Shown: positions 5,907 through 55,980 of the stretch, piece after piece
Numbering within the stretch: the stretch's first letter is position 1
Layout of the letters: each line of letters opens with the position of its first letter
Assembly (NCBI GenBank): GCA_003150515.1
Contig: QALW01000021.1
Coordinates: 163,644 to 227,643 of the forward strand
Length of the DNA stretch: 64,000 nucleotides
Direction: 5' to 3'
Origin: Selenomonadales bacterium
GTDB taxonomy: Bacteria > Bacillota > Clostridia > Christensenellales > QALW01
Notes under the pieces: generated by a model
Databases searched by the model: none
Told to the model about the DNA's origin: nothing
Seen by the model: only the letters and a program-made list of their open reading frames with translations
Made by a program: the position numbers and the translations under genes

Positions 5907-7216
5907 TTTGCTTCCCTCTCTTTCCTTATAACAGCCGCTTTGCCCAGCCTGAGCGACTGCATTAAATAGCGTTTGGCCGGACATACGAACGTGCAGCTTC
6001 CGCATTCTATGCAATCCTTAATATGCCAGGCGGCGCATTCCTCCAATTTGCCGGCGCGCTGAAATGCGTCCAGCGCAGCGGGCACCAGCCCGACAGGACA
6101 TGCCTGAACGCATTTCCCGCAGCGTATGCAGGCAGATTCCTCGGGCAGCTCGGCGTCCTTTTTATTAAGCAGAAGCAAGCCCGACGTGCCTTTTATTACC
6201 GGTGAATTTATATCTGCGGCAGCCGTCCCCATCATGGGCCCGCCTGAAATAATTTTTGCAACTTTATAACTGTCTATATCAAGAAAATTCAGCACATCGC
6301 AGATACGCGTGCCTAAAGGAATATAAAGATTATAGCCGTCCCCTATAGCGCTTCCGGCAACGGTAGTTATTCTGCCCGTAACGGGCTCCCCTTTTACGGC
6401 AGCCGCATACAGAGCCGCGGCAGTAGCCACATTCTGCACTACGCAGCCTATTTTTGACGGAAGCGCGCCCGAAGGCACCTGCCGGCGGGTAAGCTGATAT
6501 ATAAGCTGCTTTTCCGCTCCCATGGGATAGCGTTTGGGCAGCACATGAACTGCAATTTCATCAAACCGCTCAGCCTGCTCCTTCATAATTTTAATAGCCT
6601 CGGGCTTATTGGCCTCTATTCCAATTAAAATTCTCGGCGCCCCTACAGCCATGGCCGAAAGACGCGCGCCCAGCAGTATATCCAGAGAATGCTCTATCAT
6701 CAGCCTGTTATCCGCCGTTAAATAGGGCTCGCACTCGGCGCCGTTTATAATGAGAAAATCTATTTTATCTTGGGTAGCCAGCTTAACATGAGTGGGAAAA
6801 GCCGCTCCTCCCATGCCTGCAAGGCCCATCTGCTCAGCCGCGGCGATAATCTCTTCCCGGCTGGGCGACGGATTCTGACTAAACTCCGCCCGTTCATATA
6901 CGTTATCGTTATCTATGACAATAGTGGGCACGGGCTTCCCGGCGGCGTTATTATAATTTGCAATTTCCACTACTTTGCCCGACACGCTGGAATGTATATT
7001 TGCGCTTATCTGGCCGTGCCTGGCAGCTATGAGCTCGCCCAAACGGACATACTGGCCTTTAGCCACCAAGGGCTCAGCGGGGCTGCCCAGATGCTGAACC
7101 AAAGGAATATACACTCTTTCGGGCGCGGGCATGATTTGTATGGGCTTATCGGCCCAGATTACAGCCTCTTCCTGCTTGCGGCTAAGCGGATGAATACCCC
7201 CTCTTTTTTTAAACAC
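5903..7216 (-). CDS. rnfC: Rnf complex subunit C (NADH-binding, 2x4Fe-4S)
   Basis: RnfC-type sequence (FKKRGGIHP..., two CxxCxxCxxxCP motifs near the C-terminus). I place the start at GTG 7216-7214, seven nt downstream of AGGAGG (complement of 7224-7229). The track start at 7279 lies upstream of the predicted promoter. Confidence 0.88.
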   Translation of the reverse strand: MFKKRGGIHPLSRKQEEAVIWADKPIQIMPAPERVYIPLVQHLGSPAEPLVAKGQYVRLGELIAARHGQISANIHSSVSGKVVEIANYNNAAGKPVPTIVIDNDNVYERAEFSQNPSPSREEIIAAAEQMGLAGMGGAAFPTHVKLATQDKIDFLIINGAECEPYLTADNRLMIEHSLDILLGARLSAMAVGAPRILIGIEANKPEAIKIMKEQAERFDEIAVHVLPKRYPMGAEKQLIYQLTRRQVPSGALPSKIGCVVQNVATAAALYAAAVKGEPVTGRITTVAGSAIGDGYNLYIPLGTRICDVLNFLDIDSYKVAKIISGGPMMGTAAADINSPVIKGTSGLLLLNKKDAELPEESACIRCGKCVQACPVGLVPAALDAFQRAGKLEECAAWHIKDCIECGSCTFVCPAKRYLMQSLRLGKAAVIRKEREAK

Positions 7217-14958: not shown

Positions 14959-15115
14959 AAAACATCCAGGGCGCATATAAAGGGGCGGGGCGGCTCGCGG
15001 CCCGGCCTGCGGCCGGGACAGGGGCGTTTTTGCAAAGCAAAAACCGCCCCTGCTTTGGCGCTAGGCACCAAAGCCGCGAGCCGCCCCGCCCCTTTATATG
15101 CACCCTGGATGTTTT
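14959..15115. repeat. GC-rich four-way-junction palindrome (hairpin cluster H1)
   Basis: A 43-bp outer stem (14959-15001 with 15073-15115, one mismatch) encloses three hairpins at 15002-15016, 15019-15052 and 15053-15073. Confidence 0.9.
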
Positions 15116-24583: not shown

Positions 24584-24743
24584 AAAAGGCCGTGATAAGG
24601 GGGGCGTTAAGCCCAATAGGGGGGCGGCGTTTGGCAGGCTGAACCGCCTGCCCGGCCGGAGCCTTCGGCTTCGGCCGGCGGCCCTTCGGGCCGCAAACGC
24701 CGCCCCCCTATTGGGCTTAACGCCCCCTTATCACGGCCTTTTA
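24584..24743. repeat. GC-rich four-way-junction palindrome (hairpin cluster H2), also a probable bidirectional terminator
   Basis: A ~50-bp outer stem (24584-24633 with 24694-24743, one G bulge) is flanked by an A-run and a T-run. It encloses three hairpins at 24634-24651, 24652-24678 (cUUCGg loop) and 24679-24693 (cUUCGg loop). Confidence 0.9.
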
Positions 24744-40724: not shown

Positions 40725-40756
40725 AGCAGGGTTAAAAATTAGCCCTGCTTTTTTAT
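40725..40756 (+). terminator. Rho-independent terminator of the spoIIIA operon
   Basis: agcaggg (40725-40731) pairs with ccctgct (40743-40749), followed by a T-run to 40756. Confidence 0.7.
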
Positions 40757-40785
40757 TTAAATAATTATGCCCCGGATATAGGCGG

Positions 40786-41061
40786 GGATGGCGAAATGGC
40801 GCCCAGACCGGCATAAATGCCGGCCTGGGCGCCGGGGGCGCGCCGTTGGGCAAGCCTTAAGGCTTGCCCTTGGCCGAGCATAGCTCGGCCCGAGCGGCCT
40901 ACGGCCGCTCAACGGCGCGCCCCCGGCGGCCCCCATTCAAGCGCCCTATAGGGCGCTTGAATGGGGGCCGCAAAAGAGCGTGCAAAGAAAGCAAGCTTTC
41001 TTTGCACGCTCTTTTGCGGGCAAGGCCTGCTTTGCAGGCCTTGCCCGCCATTTCGCCATCC
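40786..41061. repeat. GC-rich nested hairpin array (cluster H3a), 276 nt
   Basis: A closing stem (40786-40799 with 41048-41061) encloses these hairpins:
- 40800-40831
- a four-way junction at 40832-40927, with arms at 40848-40869, 40872-40890 and 40892-40910
- 40927-40970
- 40971-41016
- 41017-41047
The hairpins are tiled with essentially no unpaired spacer. Confidence 0.9.
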
Positions 41062-41079
41062 TAGCCCCTTGCTCTAAAT

Positions 41080-41190
41080 TTCAAAGCCGGCGCAGCATGC
41101 GGCGTTTGGCAGGCTAATAGCCTGCCCGGCCGAACTTTGTTCGGCCCGCGGCCGCAGGCCGCAAACGCCGCATGCTGCGCCGGCTTTGAA
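41080..41190. repeat. GC-rich four-way-junction palindrome (cluster H3b), same core as H2
   Basis: A 29-bp outer stem (41080-41108 with 41162-41190) closes three hairpins at 41109-41125, 41128-41146 and 41148-41162. It shares GCGGCGTTTGGCAGGCT, GCCTGCCCGGCCG and GGCCGCAAACGCCGC with 24625-24705. Confidence 0.9.
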
Positions 41191-41234
41191 TCAAACCTTC
41201 ATGCAGCAAACCCAAAAATCTGCTAAACTCACTT

Positions 41235-42659
41235 CTATTTAATTACGCTTATCGCATCCGTTATAGTCTTTTCATAGGCTTCCATGCCATACTTATCGAC
41301 TTCCGCCTTATTCTTCTCCCCATGCGTTAAGCAGCCCGCGCCTCCTATGCATCCTCCCACGCAAGCCATTCCCTCAATAAAATTGCCTACCGGCAGTTTT
41401 TTAGAAGCCTTAAGCAGCGCGACTCTGCATTCCTCTATGCCATCGCAGGCCACCGGCTTAAATTCAAAATCAGTAAGCCCCTGCTCTTTAAGCGCCTGGC
41501 GCACCGCGTCAGTAAGCCCCCCGCTGCGCGCAAAAATCCGGCCAAAATATGAAGCGTTATCCAAAACGTCCTCAGACAATGCTGTAATATCAATATCCCG
41601 GCTGTCAAAAAGCGCCTGAAGCTCTTCAAAAGTAATAACGCAATCTATATACGGTCTAACCGACTCCTTCTGGAACTCCATCTTTTTAGCCGTACAAGGC
41701 CCTATAAAAATCACCTTAGCCTCAGGAGTGGTATCCTTTATGTATTTAGCAATAGTAGCCATGGGCGACAGATTATGCGATATATTAGCTTCAAGCTCCG
41801 GAAACTGCTTTTTAATATAATCCACAAACGCCGGGCAGCAGGAACTGGTTAAAAAGCCCTTTTCCGCTAATTCCGCGGCCTCAGCATATGAAACCATATC
41901 CGCTCCCAGCGCCGCCTCCACTACATGGAAAAAGCCTAATTGCTTAATCCCGCTTATCACCTGCCCCAGTTTTGCATATGTAAACTGGCTTGATATGGAC
42001 GGCGCCACCACGGCATAAAGCTTATAATTCTTATTCTCTTCGCTCTCCTTTATAAGCTTTACTACGTCCAGAATAAAAGATTTATCCATAATGGCTCCAA
42101 ACGGGCACTGATATACGCACGCTCCGCAGGCTATGCATTTGCTGTTGTCTATGCAGGCCGCCTTGGATTCGTTCATAGATATCGCCTTAACCTTGCACGC
42201 GTTCTGACAGGGGCGCTTATCGTTCACTATTGCGCTGTACGGGCACACTTTAGCGCACTTTCCGCATTCAATGCATTTGGATTTATCAATTATAGCCTTT
42301 TGGTTATTGTCAAAGGATATGGCGCCGCGGGGGCAGGCTCCTTCGCAGCGATGAGCTATGCAGCCGCGGCAGGCGTTTGTAACTTCATAGCCGCCTACAG
42401 GGCATTCATCACAGGCAATTTCTATTACTTCAATTACATTTTCGTTGTTTTTATCCCCGCCCATCGCCAGCTTAACACGCTCTGAAAGAATAGCTCTTTC
42501 TTTATATACGCAGCAGCGCATAGTAGGCTTATTGCCCGGAACAATTATTTTAGGAATATCCAGCAGATTTTCCTGCAAGGTTCCGTTAAAGGCCTGCCGC
42601 GCAACCTCTTTAAGCACATTGTATTTTAAATCCTGAACTTTGGTGTCAAACTTTCTCAT
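41235..42659 (-). CDS. hfsD: [FeFe]-hydrogenase-like protein with N-terminal ferredoxin-type clusters (HfsD-like)
   Basis: H-cluster motifs TSSCCPAF, GPCTAKKMEF and EGMACVGGCIGG, plus several CxxCxxCxxxCP motifs. The likely start MRKFDTK at 42659 follows AAAGGA. The track's TTG at 42674 abuts the upstream stop. Confidence 0.85.
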   Translation of the reverse strand: MRKFDTKVQDLKYNVLKEVARQAFNGTLQENLLDIPKIIVPGNKPTMRCCVYKERAILSERVKLAMGGDKNNENVIEVIEIACDECPVGGYEVTNACRGCIAHRCEGACPRGAISFDNNQKAIIDKSKCIECGKCAKVCPYSAIVNDKRPCQNACKVKAISMNESKAACIDNSKCIACGACVYQCPFGAIMDKSFILDVVKLIKESEENKNYKLYAVVAPSISSQFTYAKLGQVISGIKQLGFFHVVEAALGADMVSYAEAAELAEKGFLTSSCCPAFVDYIKKQFPELEANISHNLSPMATIAKYIKDTTPEAKVIFIGPCTAKKMEFQKESVRPYIDCVITFEELQALFDSRDIDITALSEDVLDNASYFGRIFARSGGLTDAVRQALKEQGLTDFEFKPVACDGIEECRVALLKASKKLPVGNFIEGMACVGGCIGGAGCLTHGEKNKAEVDKYGMEAYEKTITDAISVIK

Positions 42660-42674
42660 AATTATCCTTTCCAA

Positions 42675-43844
42675 TTAAAAATAGCTTACCTTTATTCGCT
42701 TGCCCATTTTTTTAAGGCAATCGGCTAATTCGTCAACCAATCTCATCTTAATATTGAAATTTATAGGCAAATCCGGATTCTGATGAGCTGGATTGACCGC
42801 CCGCCCTACGTAAAAATTTATATCCGTAGCGTCCTCAAAGAGCATGCGCGCGATACAGGAAGCTCCGTCCTTTTTATAGCTCCATTGAGTGTAGGATTGA
42901 TTTTCGCGCAAATAATCCTGCGCATAGCTCAATACTTTATTTATGGTGATTACCCCTTCGGTTACAAGATCTACTCCCTCAATTTCTGCCGTAGGAGGTA
43001 TATCCGGATCGAAAAAATCTAATTTAGGCTTTAATTCCTTATGCAGATACGCCGCGGCAATGGTGGAGGTGGTGCCTCCGCATACGATATGCTTGCCCTC
43101 TTTAGAGAAAAATAAAGACATCATCTTATCGTTATCCTCCCTATTGGAAGGCGGCCCTATAACAAGATTGACAGGCTCCCGCCTACGTATGCGTATTGTG
43201 CAGACAGTAGTGTCGTCCCCCGGCTCATAGCCGTATAGCTTGTCGCATTCGTCCAGAAGAATGGTAGTAAGAGTTTTGGCAGTAAAGCCAACGTCATAGA
43301 AAGTCTCCATGAATTCTATAATATTCTTTCTTTCCCAGCCAAAATTCAGCGTCATGCCCACCCCGGCATGTATGCATCCATCGCTCATAGCTATAAATAT
43401 ATCGTTTTCTTTCAGCGCAATCTTAGATTGATAGATGGTCTTTCCGTCTATGCTCAGAATGGAGGAAGGAATTTCATAATTAGCTCCGTCCCGCAAAAGG
43501 ATGACATGGGGATTGTCATACTGAATAATCTCCGCCTCCTCATTATTCACTATGCGAATAATGGTAAACGTAGAATAAGCCACGCCCCGTTCAGAGCATA
43601 CCGGAAGAGTCGCGGCTATGGTATGCACGCATTCCTGTATATCCATGCCGTCCGCCATCATAGTAGAAATAATCTTAGAGGTCAGAGTAGACAATATGCT
43701 TGCTTTAACGCCGCTGCCCATGCCGTCCGCCAGTACGATAATTTCCGAATTATCCTGCCGCACAACATCGACATGGTCGCCGCATAGCTGCTCTCCCATT
43801 TTATTCAGGCTCCTCCAGCCTATATCAGCGCAAAGATCATTCAT
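42675..43844 (-). CDS. hfsC: PP2C/SpoIIE-family serine phosphatase (HfsC-like)
   Basis: 389 aa. The N-terminal half has SpoIIE/PP2C-like metal-binding segments (GEQLCGDH, VLADGMGSG). Overlaps the upstream gene by 8 nt. Confidence 0.8.
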   Translation of the reverse strand: MNDLCADIGWRSLNKMGEQLCGDHVDVVRQDNSEIIVLADGMGSGVKASILSTLTSKIISTMMADGMDIQECVHTIAATLPVCSERGVAYSTFTIIRIVNNEEAEIIQYDNPHVILLRDGANYEIPSSILSIDGKTIYQSKIALKENDIFIAMSDGCIHAGVGMTLNFGWERKNIIEFMETFYDVGFTAKTLTTILLDECDKLYGYEPGDDTTVCTIRIRRREPVNLVIGPPSNREDNDKMMSLFFSKEGKHIVCGGTTSTIAAAYLHKELKPKLDFFDPDIPPTAEIEGVDLVTEGVITINKVLSYAQDYLRENQSYTQWSYKKDGASCIARMLFEDATDINFYVGRAVNPAHQNPDLPINFNIKMRLVDELADCLKKMGKRIKVSYF

Positions 43845-45510
43845 CTGAAATGCTCTCCTTAAGCTTGGCCAGAGCTATTTTAGTTTCGGCCGCGGTTTCT
43901 CCCAACAGGGACGCAATTTCCTGCACTACGCGCATCTGCTTATCCACGACTTTATCGGCCGTCTCAATAGTGGCGCGGCTAATAGCTTCCTTTTTCTCCT
44001 TTTCATTCTCTATATCGGTTATATCCCTCATGATGCAGATAATAATCTTATATTCCTTATCATACAGGATTGTCTCTTCTACATATTTTCTATATTCGGC
44101 TAAATATACTCTGCGGTCCCGTATGCTCGTCCCGCTCTGCTTTACTTCCAGAAAATCCTTCGGATCCAAAATACGCACAACCTGCTCGCCCAGCACGTCG
44201 CCGGCGCTCCTGATATTCATTATATCCCGCGCCGCCGCGTTAATTTGCTGCACTTCAAAATCCTCGTTCAGCACAATAATGCCGTTGGGCGTATTGCTTA
44301 TAATATTATCAGAAAAGCTTTCCGCCTTATCCTTCAAATAAGGCAGGCACATATTTAAATCCGCCTTTCCCTGATAAACTGCAATCGCTTTTTCCCGGCA
44401 GGTATTATATCCGCAGCTTCCGCAGTTTAATTCGTCCTCAGGCTTAAGCTTGCCTATTTTTTTGAGAATCGCTTCTATTTCGGACTGCGTGGGCATAGCT
44501 CTGGACGTCCCAATAAAATCATGTTCGCGATATATTTCCTCCGGAGAAACAGGCGCCACGTCGAAATCCTCGCTTTTAGCATATGAGGCCACCTGATTAT
44601 AATTGCTCACCGGACTGCAATGATATTTTTCCATAACCGGACCGCCTACGCAGCTTCCCCGGCAGGCGGACATCTCTATAAAGCAATTTCTTAAATTGCC
44701 TTTTTCAATTTCCCTGAGCGCCGCTATACAGTCCTCCGTGCCGTCCAGCGCCAAATAGCTGTAATCCTTTCGGGGCAAAAACATAGATTTCAGAATGCCG
44801 CCCGTTGTAGGAAACAACCGCGCTCTTCCCTTGGAATTATCCTCCCTTGTGCGCTCCAGGCTAACTCCGCGCTTGCGCATAAGACTGGAAAGCTCCTCAA
44901 AGGTCAGCACGCAGTCCACGGGCCCGGGGTATCTATCCGCCTCGTCCTTTTTAGAAACGCACGGACCGATAAAAATGGTCTTCGCGTCAGGATAGCGCTT
45001 TTTTATATCCATACAATGAGCCTGCATGGGCGAAACCACTTTGGCAAGATATCTAAGAGCGGAAGGAAAATATTTTTCTATGAGCAGGTTAATAGAATGA
45101 CAGCAGGAAGATATAATTACATCCTGTTCTCCCTCTTGTAAAAGCCTGTCGTATTCTTTCTTAACTATAGTCGCGCCGATAGCCGTTTCCTCGGCGGCAT
45201 AAAAGCCAAGCTGCTTAAGCGCCTTTTCCATAGCCTCTATGCCCGCTCCGTCATAATTAGCCGTAAAGGAAGGCGCCAGGCTGGCTATTACCTTGCCACT
45301 GTTAAGCAGCACTTCCGCCTTTTCAGTATTGTCCGCAATCTCTTTGGCGCCCTGCGGACATACTACAAAGCATTGTCCGCATAAAATGCATTCTTCCGGC
45401 ACAATATGCGCCTGATTAGCCGAAATCCTTATGGATTTTACCGGACAATGACGTATGCATTTATAACAGTTTTTGCAATTAGATTTTTTCAGCCTTAAAA
45501 ATTCAGCCAT
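43837..45510 (-). CDS. hydS: Sensory [FeFe]-hydrogenase (group C, HydS/HfsB-like) with C-terminal PAS domain
   Basis: 557 aa with the following parts in order:
- two N-terminal 4Fe-4S motifs
- H-domain motifs SSCCHS, GPCVSKKDE and EMSACRGSCVGG
- an extra Cx2Cx4Cx16C motif (CGSCGYNTC...C)
- a PAS-like segment (NGIIVLNEDFEVQQINAAARDIM)
- a coiled-coil tail. Confidence 0.85.
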   Translation of the reverse strand: MAEFLRLKKSNCKNCYKCIRHCPVKSIRISANQAHIVPEECILCGQCFVVCPQGAKEIADNTEKAEVLLNSGKVIASLAPSFTANYDGAGIEAMEKALKQLGFYAAEETAIGATIVKKEYDRLLQEGEQDVIISSCCHSINLLIEKYFPSALRYLAKVVSPMQAHCMDIKKRYPDAKTIFIGPCVSKKDEADRYPGPVDCVLTFEELSSLMRKRGVSLERTREDNSKGRARLFPTTGGILKSMFLPRKDYSYLALDGTEDCIAALREIEKGNLRNCFIEMSACRGSCVGGPVMEKYHCSPVSNYNQVASYAKSEDFDVAPVSPEEIYREHDFIGTSRAMPTQSEIEAILKKIGKLKPEDELNCGSCGYNTCREKAIAVYQGKADLNMCLPYLKDKAESFSDNIISNTPNGIIVLNEDFEVQQINAAARDIMNIRSAGDVLGEQVVRILDPKDFLEVKQSGTSIRDRRVYLAEYRKYVEETILYDKEYKIIICIMRDITDIENEKEKKEAISRATIETADKVVDKQMRVVQEIASLLGETAAETKIALAKLKESISDE

Positions 45511-50473: not shown

Positions 50474-50658
50474 CTGAGGCCCGCAAATAAATAAGGCGCT
50501 CAAGCGCCTTATTTATTTGCGGGCCTCAGCCTCCTGGCAGGGGTATGCCAATAGTCTTAAAGCGCGGGCGGCTCGCGCTTTAAGACTATTGGCATACCCC
50601 TGCCAGGAGGAACAAATGACGGCCTATGTCCGGCAACGCCGGACATAGGCCGTCATTT
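50474..50658. repeat. Three tandem perfect long hairpins (cluster H4)
   Basis: Three hairpins: 26-bp stem at 50474-50529 (loop tcaa), 37-bp stem at 50530-50610 (loop ggcggct) and 21-bp stem at 50614-50658 (loop aac). All stems are perfect. Confidence 0.9.
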
Positions 50659-51935: not shown

Positions 51936-52136
51936 CAGGTTTGCCTCCTTAATGCGCCTTAACAGGGTATGGGCGCTTCAAATTGCTACCCTATGGCAAT
52001 AATTATGCCTCTTGTTTTTAATTTATGCACGCATTATAACACGAGTGAAATGAAAATGCAATAGTTTTGTAATATTTAATTGTGAATTTTTTATGTGCGC
52101 CTTTTTACGAGGAAATATTTTAAAATTTTTCAGGCT

Positions 52137-52309
52137 GGCCCTGGGCGCGTAAACGCGCCCAGGGCCAAAGTCTCAATATAGCCCGGAAAGCTTTGCTTTC
52201 CGGGCTATATTGAGACTTTGCGCCCGGCCTAAAGGCCGGGCGCAGCCCTTTAAATAAACGGCCGATGGGCTCAAGATATCAAAAATGATATCTTGAGCCC
52301 ATCGGCCGT
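52137..52309. repeat. Four tandem perfect hairpins (cluster H5)
   Basis: Four perfect hairpins at 52137-52166 (13 bp, taaa), 52167-52219 (25 bp, ttt), 52220-52243 (10 bp, taaa) and 52258-52309 (24 bp, aaaa). Confidence 0.9.
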
Positions 52310-54864: not shown

Positions 54865-55923
54865 ATGAGAATTCAAAAAGCTACGGTGCTTAAGGAAAAG
54901 CCCCAGGACGAAAATAAGCTTGGTTTCGGCCAGGTCTATACCGACCATATGCTTATGATGGACTATTCCCCCCAGGAGGGCTGGCATGATATGCGCGTCG
55001 TTCCTTATCAATCCCTGCCCCTGGATCCCGCCTGCATGGCTCTGCATTACGGGCAGGCTATTTTTGAGGGACTTAAGGCTTATAAGGGAAAGGACGGCCA
55101 GATACGCTTATTCCGTCCCAGCAGCAATTTCGAGCGCATGAACCGTTCGGGAGAAAGGCTTTGCATTCCGCCCATCAATGTTGATGAAGCGGTTAAAGGC
55201 CTGGAAGAGCTTATAAGAATAGAGCAGGATTGGATTCCTACCGCCCCCAACACCTCTCTTTATATTCGTCCTACCATAATAGCTACCGACGCTCATCTTG
55301 GAGTGCGCGCGTCCAATACATATCTGTTTTATATTATTCTCTCCCCCGTCGGCCCCTATTATAAGGAGGGACTTAACCCTGTCAAAATATTCGTGGAGGA
55401 CGAATATGTCCGCGCCGTGCGCGGAGGCACAGGCTTTACCAAATGCGCGGGCAATTATGCAGCCAGCCTTATAGGAAGCGAGCACGCCAAAGAGGTGGGC
55501 TATTCCCAGGTGCTCTGGCTGGACGGCGTAGAGCGCAAATATGTTGAAGAAGTGGGCTCCATGAACATATTCTTCGTTATAGACAACACTCTTATCACTC
55601 CTCCCCTGGAAGGAAGCATCCTGGGAGGCATAACCAGGGATTCAGTAATTAAATACGCCAAATATAAAGGCCTGAAAGTGGAAGAGCGCAGGCTGCCCAT
55701 TAAGGAAGTATTTGACGCCGCCGCTCAGGGCAGGCTGAACGAATGCTTCGGCACGGGAACCGCCGCCGTAATTTCTCCTGTAGGAATGCTGCGCATGGAG
55801 GATCAGGAAATAGTCATAAACAATAATCAGATAGGCCCCATGGCGCAGATGATGTATGATGAAATAACCGGCATACAATACGGACGTCTGGAAGATCCCT
55901 TCGGCTGGGTTATAAAGCTATAA
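54865..55923 (+). CDS. ilvE: Branched-chain amino acid aminotransferase
   Basis: 352 aa, class IV aminotransferase (HYGQAIFEGLKAY, GTGFTKCAGNYAAS). Confidence 0.92.
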   Translation: MRIQKATVLKEKPQDENKLGFGQVYTDHMLMMDYSPQEGWHDMRVVPYQSLPLDPACMALHYGQAIFEGLKAYKGKDGQIRLFRPSSNFERMNRSGERLCIPPINVDEAVKGLEELIRIEQDWIPTAPNTSLYIRPTIIATDAHLGVRASNTYLFYIILSPVGPYYKEGLNPVKIFVEDEYVRAVRGGTGFTKCAGNYAASLIGSEHAKEVGYSQVLWLDGVERKYVEEVGSMNIFFVIDNTLITPPLEGSILGGITRDSVIKYAKYKGLKVEERRLPIKEVFDAAAQGRLNECFGTGTAAVISPVGMLRMEDQEIVINNNQIGPMAQMMYDEITGIQYGRLEDPFGWVIKL

Positions 55924-55950
55924 AATATATTTTATAGCTGCCGCTTTAAA

Positions 55951-55980
55951 GGCCGCGGAATAATAATTCCGCGGCCTTTT
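55951..55980. terminator. Hairpin terminator after ilvE (convergent with the feo operon)
   Basis: ggccgcggaat pairs with attccgcggcc, followed by TTTT. Preceded by AAA. Confidence 0.75.

Follow-up and report, generated by a model that had tools for sequence, protein, structure and literature searches.

Does the array of nested hairpins that follows spoIIIAH in a Selenomonadales bacterium of the Christensenellales (lineage QALW01) encode a structured RNA, or is it a cluster of DNA palindromes that folds equally well on either strand? The array occupies positions 40786-41061 of a 64,000-nucleotide stretch (contig QALW01000021.1 of assembly GCA_003150515.1, positions 163,644 to 227,643), which is called the window throughout. 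A preliminary description, made from the letters alone, implied a discrete structured RNA specific to this locus, with a neutral and recent accident as the fallback. The array is judged here, at a probability of about 60%, to be a local accretion of lineage-specific, GC-rich palindromic extragenic DNA repeats, selfish or neutral and similar to the repetitive extragenic palindromic (REP) sequences and bacterial interspersed mosaic elements (BIME) of other bacteria, and not an RNA gene. An RNA gene or riboswitch-like element is very unlikely because the fold is symmetric between strands, the pairing is exclusively Watson-Crick, G.T-type mismatches are as frequent as A.C-type mismatches, the orientation is random and subject to flipping, the position is beyond a terminator, the structure is polymorphic within the species, and a sister species lacks it. 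The array and the terminator before it consist of the following features.

40786-41061, no strand assigned: array; 15-bp closing stem (40786-40800/41047-41061) around five abutting palindromes
40801-40830, no strand assigned: hairpin of 12 pairs and one A-C mismatch, loop TAAA
40831-40927, no strand assigned: cloverleaf repeat of sub-family 1b; 17-bp closing stem (GCCGGGGGCGCGCCGTT); arms at 40848-40869 (9 bp), 40872-40890 (8 bp) and 40892-40910 (8 bp)
40928-40969, no strand assigned: perfect palindrome, 19 bp, loop TATA
40970-41017, no strand assigned: perfect palindrome, 22 bp
41018-41046, no strand assigned: perfect palindrome, 13 bp, loop TTT
40725-40756, plus strand: intrinsic terminator of spoIIIAH; 11-bp stem (to 40749) then a T run; upstream of the array and outside it

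Reading and folding reproduced the nested layout of the preliminary description almost base for base, including its closing stem, which had been given as 14 bp and comprises 15. The fold has 123 pairs, none of them G-U, and leaves 30 of the 276 bases unpaired (helix table of 40786-41061). With RNA parameters, the plus strand reaches -257.2 kcal/mol compared with -129.4 ± 5.0 kcal/mol for shuffled sequences (z = -25.4), and none of 200 dinucleotide shuffles matched its energy, as had been anticipated. The minus strand reaches -262.6 kcal/mol (z = -23.7) with the same parameters, and DNA parameters give -231.7 kcal/mol (z = -24.5) for positions 40770-41200; the equally good fold of the minus strand indicates that the array consists of nested perfect DNA palindromes. 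The G+C content of the array region is 59-73%, against 47.7% for the window. The open reading frames (orfs) over the array mirror each other on the two strands and have peptides in common (PPFKRPIGRLNGG, KRACKES.LSLHALLR), and are therefore by-products of the palindromes; the earlier statement that no orf accounts for the region holds, as does the statement that the array is additional to the conventional terminator of spoIIIAH, which lies upstream. Overall the array is a mosaic of a family-1b cloverleaf and four simple palindromes inside a further closing stem, with a family-1 cloverleaf downstream; the apex of the palindrome at 40970-41017 (AGAAAGC/GCTTTCT) resembles GGAAAGC, one of the apex modules that recur among these elements.

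The downstream cloverleaf, 18 nt from the array, and four more loci in the window had been overlooked by the earlier reader.

41080-41190, no strand assigned: element B, family-1 cloverleaf; 27-29-bp locus-specific closing stem; -97.7 kcal/mol, z = -12.6
24590-24736, no strand assigned: element A, family-1 cloverleaf; three hairpins in a 42-bp outer stem; downstream of an ABC-transporter gene
14959-15113, no strand assigned: family-2-like cloverleaf; closing stem of about 41 bp, three hairpins of other sequence; -144.5 kcal/mol, z = -13.5
50474-50658, no strand assigned: three abutting perfect palindromes with stems of 26, 37-39 and 21 bp
52136-52309, no strand assigned: four perfect palindromes with stems of 14, 24, 11 and 24 bp

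All five loci of the window are intergenic and lie amid housekeeping genes. Element B, the core of which reads GGCGTTT / GGCAGGC hairpin / GGCCGAAC hairpin / GCGGCC hairpin / AAACGCC, lies 44 nt beyond the stop codon of a convergent hydrogenase-like gene; element A has an A run and a T run bordering its outer stem, as a bidirectional terminator would; and the element at 14959-15113 separates divergent genes. The window contains 19 perfect hairpins whose stems are 9 bp or longer, compared with 0-4 in block shuffles.

The junctions at 24626 and 41101 have a common core (GGCGTTT / GGCAGGC-loop-GCCTGCC / GGCCG..-loop / GCGGCC-loop-GGCCGC / AAACGCC), and the junction of the array (40842-40916) is a diverged copy of this family-1 core with compensated stems. 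A scan of one genome for each of 185,579 species with the exact core pattern returned 72 loci, about 66 of which belong to four related gut metagenome-assembled genomes (MAGs): about 45 to Candidatus Neochristensenella gallicola, about 17 to UMGS1037, two to UMGS474 and two to Ca. Pelethousia gallinarum. The remaining matches, in Acidobacteria and other phyla, appear unrelated to the Clostridia family, and the core pattern had zero matches among 2.9 million viral contigs, for which reason a phage origin was rejected. Every one of 57 full cores folds as a four-way junction. A covariance model (R1) built on 36 copies (alignment A1) scores element B at 84 bits, element A at 68 bits and the array junction at 58 bits (E = 2.7e-9); the proposal to search with a covariance model of the inner junction thus proved productive, with these three copies in the window and 75 copies (E < 5e-7) in 441 kb of related DNA, to which a metagenome scan added 39 distinct copies. 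Extrapolation from three copies in 64 kb gives roughly a hundred copies of the family per genome. A paralogue of the array junction with 81% identity and another outer stem was found in UMGS1037 (L057:2298-2425). Rfam 15 has no match at gathering score anywhere in the window, and a permissive scan returned only sub-threshold matches, chiefly to microRNA-type and generic hairpin models, most of them present on both strands. Searches of the full-text literature found no account of these elements.

Covariation within the family is strong: the cells of alignment A2 are 99.2% paired, both sides vary in 19 of 27 pairs, and 106 double-changed cells contrast with about 18 that changed on one side. Mismatches are rare: among 57 copies, 21 of the 1x1 type (0.76%) accompany 2,748 pairs, ten of these mismatches being G.T-type and six A.C-type, and in a further set of outer stems the numbers are 11 and 12.

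The basic unit of the family is a cloverleaf of about 70 nt with a 7-bp closing stem and three short hairpins, in which the stems are Watson-Crick paired and zero to three bases are unpaired between arms. At least two or three sequence families are made from a few recurrent apex modules (GGCAGGC, GCCGGGC/CCCGGCC, GCGGCC, GGAAAGC and TTTGGCGCC); the hairpin apexes are drawn from this small set, and the lower parts of the stems are locus-specific. In the second family the closing stem is GGGGCGGCGCGG and the arms are CCCGGCC, a long arm with apex GGAAAGC, and TTTGGCGCC; the element at 14959 and one allele of the array at 50.5 kb resemble it. Nearly every copy is wrapped in an inverted repeat unique to its locus (maximum 41 bp, median about 20 bp), and these outer repeats contain 15 mismatches in about 1,100 pairs. 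Loci L067 and L073 have near-identical cores within unrelated outer stems, and core similarity is uncorrelated with arm similarity (r = -0.2), so the idea that one long palindrome was dispersed and then drifted is unsupported. Neither GTAG nor GTGG occurs within 8 nt of any of 186 flank ends, and no other 4-mer is conserved there. One locus carries a pair of nearly identical family-1 cores on opposite strands, separated by 2.4 kb (L065:4309-4386 and 6806-6883); flipped loops in arms 1 and 2 account for most of their differences, their outer stems are only weakly similar, and the pair looks like a recent duplication or conversion event.

A preference is also evident in the number of arms. When helices of at least 8 bp in strongly folding regions of about 1.1 Mb of related DNA were sorted by the number of branches enclosed, the counts for 0, 1, 2, 3, 4 and 5 branches were 612, 110, 26, 191, 7 and 6, and with the family-1 motif left out they were 596, 67, 12, 60, 4 and 4. 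Therefore, even elements with another sequence favour a closing stem around exactly three hairpins.

The window organism and N. gallicola share synteny, with a nucleotide identity of about 81%, and elements A and B are kept in the orthologous spacers. The N. gallicola ortholog of element B (L082:1-95) has the same core and a homologous outer stem in which every difference is compensated, with one arm altered from GCGGCC/GGCCGC to GCGGTC/GACCGC; the ortholog of element A (L075) has its core inverted, and the orthologs L067 and L080 from N. gallicola and UMGS1037 have cores flipped relative to each other. Retention of element B between species of this divergence, together with the copy number of the family, disposes of the fallback of a recent accident. 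A sister species (L092-L095), the SpoIIIAH of which is 97% identical in protein and 85% in DNA, has the same pair of spoIIIAH and hydrogenase-like genes and the spoIIIAH terminator, separated by an ordinary spacer of 324 nt (-67 to -70 kcal/mol) with neither the array nor element B; at the place of element B it has a terminator-like hairpin for the hydrogenase-like gene. This spacer has only the terminator in common with the window, and the spacers are not alignable at about 85% nucleotide identity, so it carries no information on whether one arm of each window hairpin is the ancestral spacer. A relative with an 88%-identical SpoIIIAH has, in a 1.1-kb spacer, an element with a 39-bp closing stem and three family-2-type hairpins (L096:3385-3560); this is again a four-way junction downstream of spoIIIAH, unrelated in sequence and in a different synteny with an FtsK-like gene. 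No arrays were found in Gehongia tenuis and a P0036 species (57% SpoIIIAH identity) in 20 kb each, which is too little sequence to establish absence.

Within the species, contigs from at least ten metagenome samples encode an identical SpoIIIAH protein, and the array is present on every spoIIIAH contig as far as the contig reaches, six of ten contigs ending inside it. Strain differences at the array are concentrated in the loops and include an inverted loop (ATA to TAT); the A-C mismatch of the hairpin at 40801-40830 is a polymorphism of the species, with a perfect stem in other strains, and the loop of the palindrome at 40928-40969 reads TATA, GATA or TATC depending on the strain. Across the elements the loop flips found within the species are ATA/TAT, TAAAA/TTTTA and AAC/GTT, and loops of the array at 50.5 kb are flipped among strains too. 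In L002 and L005, element B is 36 nt shorter by exactly two of its three arms, leaving a simple perfect hairpin. Three alleles of the middle palindrome occur in the array at 50.5 kb: one with a 37-bp stem, one longer by 40 nt that forms a 57-bp perfect hairpin, and one longer by 120 nt that forms a four-way junction. An 80-nt insert of one 50.5-kb allele occurs nowhere else in the fetched loci or in metagenome contigs of the Joint Genome Institute, which is weak evidence that it arose locally. In the array at 52 kb, both single-nucleotide polymorphisms within stems are altered on two arms (T-A to G-C and G-C to T-A), and none of the eight contigs has an intermediate form. In about 390 pairs, the polymorphic ones comprise five that are doubly compensated and about five that are one-sided, a doubly compensated share far above that expected of independent mutation at within-species divergence. 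Element A has an inverted core in strains L102 and L107, and its spacer in L102 is 22 nt shorter, with a substitution and a 1-bp insertion in the outer stem, each on both arms. On L103:880-1200 the right half of element A is joined to the left half of a different family-1 copy, which has a different H2 arm and is downstream of a tRNA-synthetase-like gene; the joint is either a recombination between two copies or a chimeric assembly through the common core.

The spacers occupied by 96 distinct elements are tandem in 37 cases, convergent in 28 and divergent in eight, compared with expectations of 45.6, 14.5 and 12.9 derived from the same loci (chi-square p = 3e-4, an optimistic value inasmuch as orthologous copies from related strains were counted separately). 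In tandem spacers 27 of the 37 elements are closer to the 3′ end of the upstream gene, the median distance to a gene 3′ end being 83 nt, and the core has the same orientation as the gene in 19 cases and the opposite orientation in 18. A T run (at least five T in 8 nt) follows nine of 180 outer-stem ends, which equals the 5% background; therefore, the elements as a class are not canonical terminators.

These patterns would be explained if the arms were kept perfectly complementary by hairpin-templated copying, either through intra-strand template switching or fold-back synthesis in replication, or through mismatch repair within extruded hairpins. A single template-switching event can produce a perfect hairpin, and quasi-palindromes can be made perfect in this way (10.1101/2023.04.19.537475). 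The same copying process could yield the inversions of loops and cores, the precise loss of two arms with a perfect hairpin remaining, and the substitutions and indel present on two arms; proceeding outward from stable GC-rich seeds, it might make palindromes abut without a spacer until the free intergenic space is full. The conserved cores would have spread or been homogenised independently of the outer stems, probably by means of a trans-acting enzyme or ectopic conversion. The outer stems could have originated as pre-existing palindromes that were targeted, as flanks turned palindromic after insertion, or by free drift under arm-to-arm conversion. Any effect on transcription or on mRNA 3′ ends would be secondary. 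A bolder and only tentative proposal is that self-maintaining nested palindromes are an undescribed class of bacterial repeat, in which a structure-specific enzyme propagates or homogenises the core while hairpin-templated synthesis keeps the arms complementary and the palindromes grow and stack; if so, they would be a natural, population-visible case of intra-strand gene conversion and a hidden cause of contig breaks in gut MAGs.

Several observations weigh against interpretation as REP-like repeats. The marked preference for exactly three arms (191 helices with three branches compared with 26 with two) is not accounted for, and the identity of core stems across copies and species bespeaks constraint or homogenisation, which a purely neutral model does not cover. 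Hairpin-templated copying is deduced from patterns to which strong selection for pairing could contribute. Mobility is likewise deduced from copy number alone: neither a clean pair of filled and empty sites nor a target-site duplication was found, and the approximately 1.1 Mb of DNA sampled, an incomplete sample, yielded no transposase or dedicated enzyme. In that DNA an all-against-all clustering of orfs revealed no multi-copy protein near the elements, and tblastn with IS608 TnpA and Escherichia coli YafM (approximate queries) found nothing; a lone weak match in L057 appears from its sequence motif to be an RsmE-like methyltransferase. Of ten genes located between pairs of copies, the nine scanned with Pfam have housekeeping functions or no match and the tenth (L039) reads as RecF; MnmA-like and pyridoxal phosphate enzyme genes are among those flanked. 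Lastly, the position counts carry the optimistic p-value mentioned above, and the comparison data are all short-read metagenome assemblies, often broken inside arrays.

The alternative that survives best, though it is unlikely, is that the elements are selected as orientation-independent barriers to transcription or protectors of mRNA 3′ ends that insulate convergent genes. Their enrichment near gene 3′ ends and in convergent spacers, their depletion in divergent ones and their retention at orthologous sites across species would all be expected of such a function. The A run and T run around element A and the location of element B where the sister species has a terminator-like hairpin are suggestive too, and REP elements are known to stabilise upstream mRNA. 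However, T runs at outer-stem ends do not exceed the background, the array follows a canonical terminator of spoIIIAH, and a plain spacer suffices in the sister species. Stems of 20-45 bp and arrays of five branches go far beyond the needs of termination, and neither the conserved core sequence nor the three-arm rule is explained.

Slightly less probable is the idea that the cores are sites bound or cleaved by a protein that recognises four-way junctions or hairpins, with the arrays as its by-products; an HUH or tyrosine enzyme and a junction-binding nucleoid or repair protein are candidates at the same low level of confidence. Core stems that stay the same from copy to copy and across species (at about 81% identity), in contrast to freely diverging outer stems and loops, the strong preference for perfect four-way junctions even in elements of unrelated sequence, and the recurrence of a limited set of apex modules would fit a protein of this kind. 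Against it, no candidate gene is adjacent to copies or flanked by them, the flanked genes being housekeeping genes, and no single-stranded motif comparable to the GTAG of REPs is conserved. This explanation partly overlaps that of REP-like DNA repeats rather than excluding it.

A functional structured RNA, that is, a stable noncoding RNA or a cis-acting element of the 3′ untranslated region with a fold under selection at the RNA level, is highly improbable despite the extreme folding energy, the strong covariation of the junction (19 of 27 pairs altered on both sides) and the location of the array downstream of a gene. The fold of the reverse strand is at least as good; there are essentially no G-U pairs, and G.T-type mismatches are in no excess over A.C mismatches; orientation to genes is random (19 versus 18), and at one and the same locus the core is found inverted from strain to strain and from species to species. 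In addition, the array is located after the terminator, no Rfam gathering score was reached, the sister species has no array, and whole arms are gained or lost within the species. Thus the discrete, locus-specific RNA implied by the preliminary description gives way to a dispersed repeat that occurs in either orientation and varies among strains.

The explanation that the array arose through faulty assembly or sequencing, for instance as a palindromic fold-back contig, has a negligible chance of being correct: although six of ten contigs at the locus stop within the array and copies of the repeat form the ends of many MAG contigs, the same array with distinct genes on each side was recovered from independent samples by different assemblers (SPAdes NODE, MEGAHIT k141 and scaffolds), and a fold-back would duplicate whole flanks and terminate contigs.

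Short-read metagenome and MAG contigs very often stop inside or beside elements, as do L005-L010, L082, L036, L039, L057, L017, L046, L069 and L107, and the 2.1-kb N. gallicola contig L039 has a copy at each of its ends; assemblies seem to break systematically at the elements. In consequence of such breaks in assemblies of Christensenellaceae-like MAGs, the elements and their neighbours are under-represented in genome catalogues. A wider implication is that perfect compensatory covariation, the usual proof of a functional RNA, can arise wholesale from DNA palindromes, and RNA-discovery pipelines based on covariation and folding energy would mis-call such loci. The strain differences (two-arm substitutions and indel, flips, inversion and arm loss) make hairpin-templated mutation measurable in public metagenomes.

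Other features of the window and of the genomes searched deserve mention. On the minus strand at 41235-45510, adjoining the array, a gene cluster encodes a ferredoxin/[FeFe]-hydrogenase-like protein (479 aa), a SpoIIE/PP2C phosphatase (389 aa), a PAS-containing hydrogenase-like protein (557 aa) and a small 2Fe-2S thioredoxin-like protein (L001 gene table), which resembles a sensory hydrogenase regulatory module. At 55916-55979, at and just past the 3′ end of a gene that ends at 55923, are two adjacent perfect palindromes, one AT-rich with a 12-bp stem and the other AAAGGCCGCGGAAT-AATA-ATTCCGCGGCCTTT with a 14-bp stem; these may be ordinary bidirectional terminators and not members of the family. 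In Acidobacteriaceae and Ca. Angelobacter MAGs (L014, L019, L029, L049, L068), the search pattern also matched a conserved hairpin, GGCGTTTGGCAGGCGTTTGAGCCTGCC, which adjoins apparent tRNA genes in four of the five (not L014) and appears unrelated to the Clostridia family. A Terriglobia MAG (L037:~600-800) has a tandem array of units of about 45 nt, each including GGCGGTTGGCAGGCGAAAGCGCCTGCC and then CCACAATTCCGGAAGGCC, a regularly spaced hairpin repeat. In UMGS474 (L020:2155-5677), repeated CCCCGCGCGTGCGGGGAACAG units with unique spacers resemble a CRISPR (clustered regularly interspaced short palindromic repeats) array and yield a cluster of spurious similar orfs.

Among known systems, several with a superficial likeness were rejected. 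A tRNA cloverleaf has arms of 7, 4, 5 and 5 bp and loops of 7-8 nt; here the arms are 6-11 bp, the loops 3-4 nt and the linker bases few or none, and ARAGORN found no tRNA or transfer-messenger RNA genes in the window. The attC sites of integrons have boundaries of the form 5′-RYYYAAC ... GTTRRRY-3′, an imperfect central palindrome and extrahelical bases, but the order in these elements is the opposite, 5′-..CGTT(arms)AACG..-3′ on both strands, and the stems are perfect. Intrinsic terminators were rejected on account of the background frequency of T runs (5%) and the position of the array after the true terminator of spoIIIAH, element A being an exception. Miniature inverted-repeat transposable elements (Correia/NEMIS, ERIC, RUP, BOX) have terminal inverted repeats specific to the element and target-site duplications; the present elements are similarly small, noncoding, dispersed, hairpin-forming and intergenic, but their outer inverted repeats differ at every locus and are not flanked by direct repeats.

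The inverted terminal repeats (ITRs) of parvoviruses, including adeno-associated virus, are replicon termini that prime rolling-hairpin replication and have two internal arms in flip and flop configurations. Their long stem around small palindromes is comparable to the architecture described here, and flip/flop resembles the core inversion of element A; in contrast, the present elements occupy internal chromosomal spacers, have three arms and number about a hundred. A hairpin telomere or parvovirus-type ITR was rejected because the elements are internal, between chromosomal housekeeping genes, and the core pattern had no match in viral contigs. Palindromic selfish DNA is also represented by the GC clusters of yeast mitochondria, the double-hairpin elements of Allomyces, the palindromes of Volvox and Polytomella and the palindromic elements of Rickettsia. 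Like the present elements, these are GC-rich, accumulate in AT-richer spacers, can be nested or adjacent and can fill intergenic regions, though in different hosts and with different sequences; we know of none with a conserved three-arm junction and locus-specific closing stems. Template-switch mutation makes perfect hairpins in one step, and two-arm changes and loop inversions would be expected of it; it is a mechanism, however, not an element family, and does not cover the conserved dispersed cores.

The closest likeness is to REP, BIME and REPIN (REP doublets forming hairpins) sequences of Proteobacteria, which are also short GC-rich extragenic palindromes of high copy number, biased toward gene 3′ ends and convergent spacers in either orientation, often grouped in mosaics of a few types of module, passed on vertically and persistent for long periods at orthologous sites. 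The gene for the REP-associated tyrosine transposase (RAYT, TnpA-REP) is typically flanked by REPs, and none was found in the approximately 1.1 Mb of incomplete genome data sampled. A REP is a single hairpin of 20-50 nt after a conserved tetranucleotide, usually GTAG (PMC8266576). In contrast, the unit of the present family is a three-arm four-way junction in a locus-specific perfect outer stem, without GTAG and without the bulges of REP stems, and its host is a lineage of Clostridia. With a conserved three-arm junction inside outer stems that differ by locus, the family thereby extends REP-like repeats to the Clostridia and poses two questions: which enzyme recognises the core, and why there are three arms.

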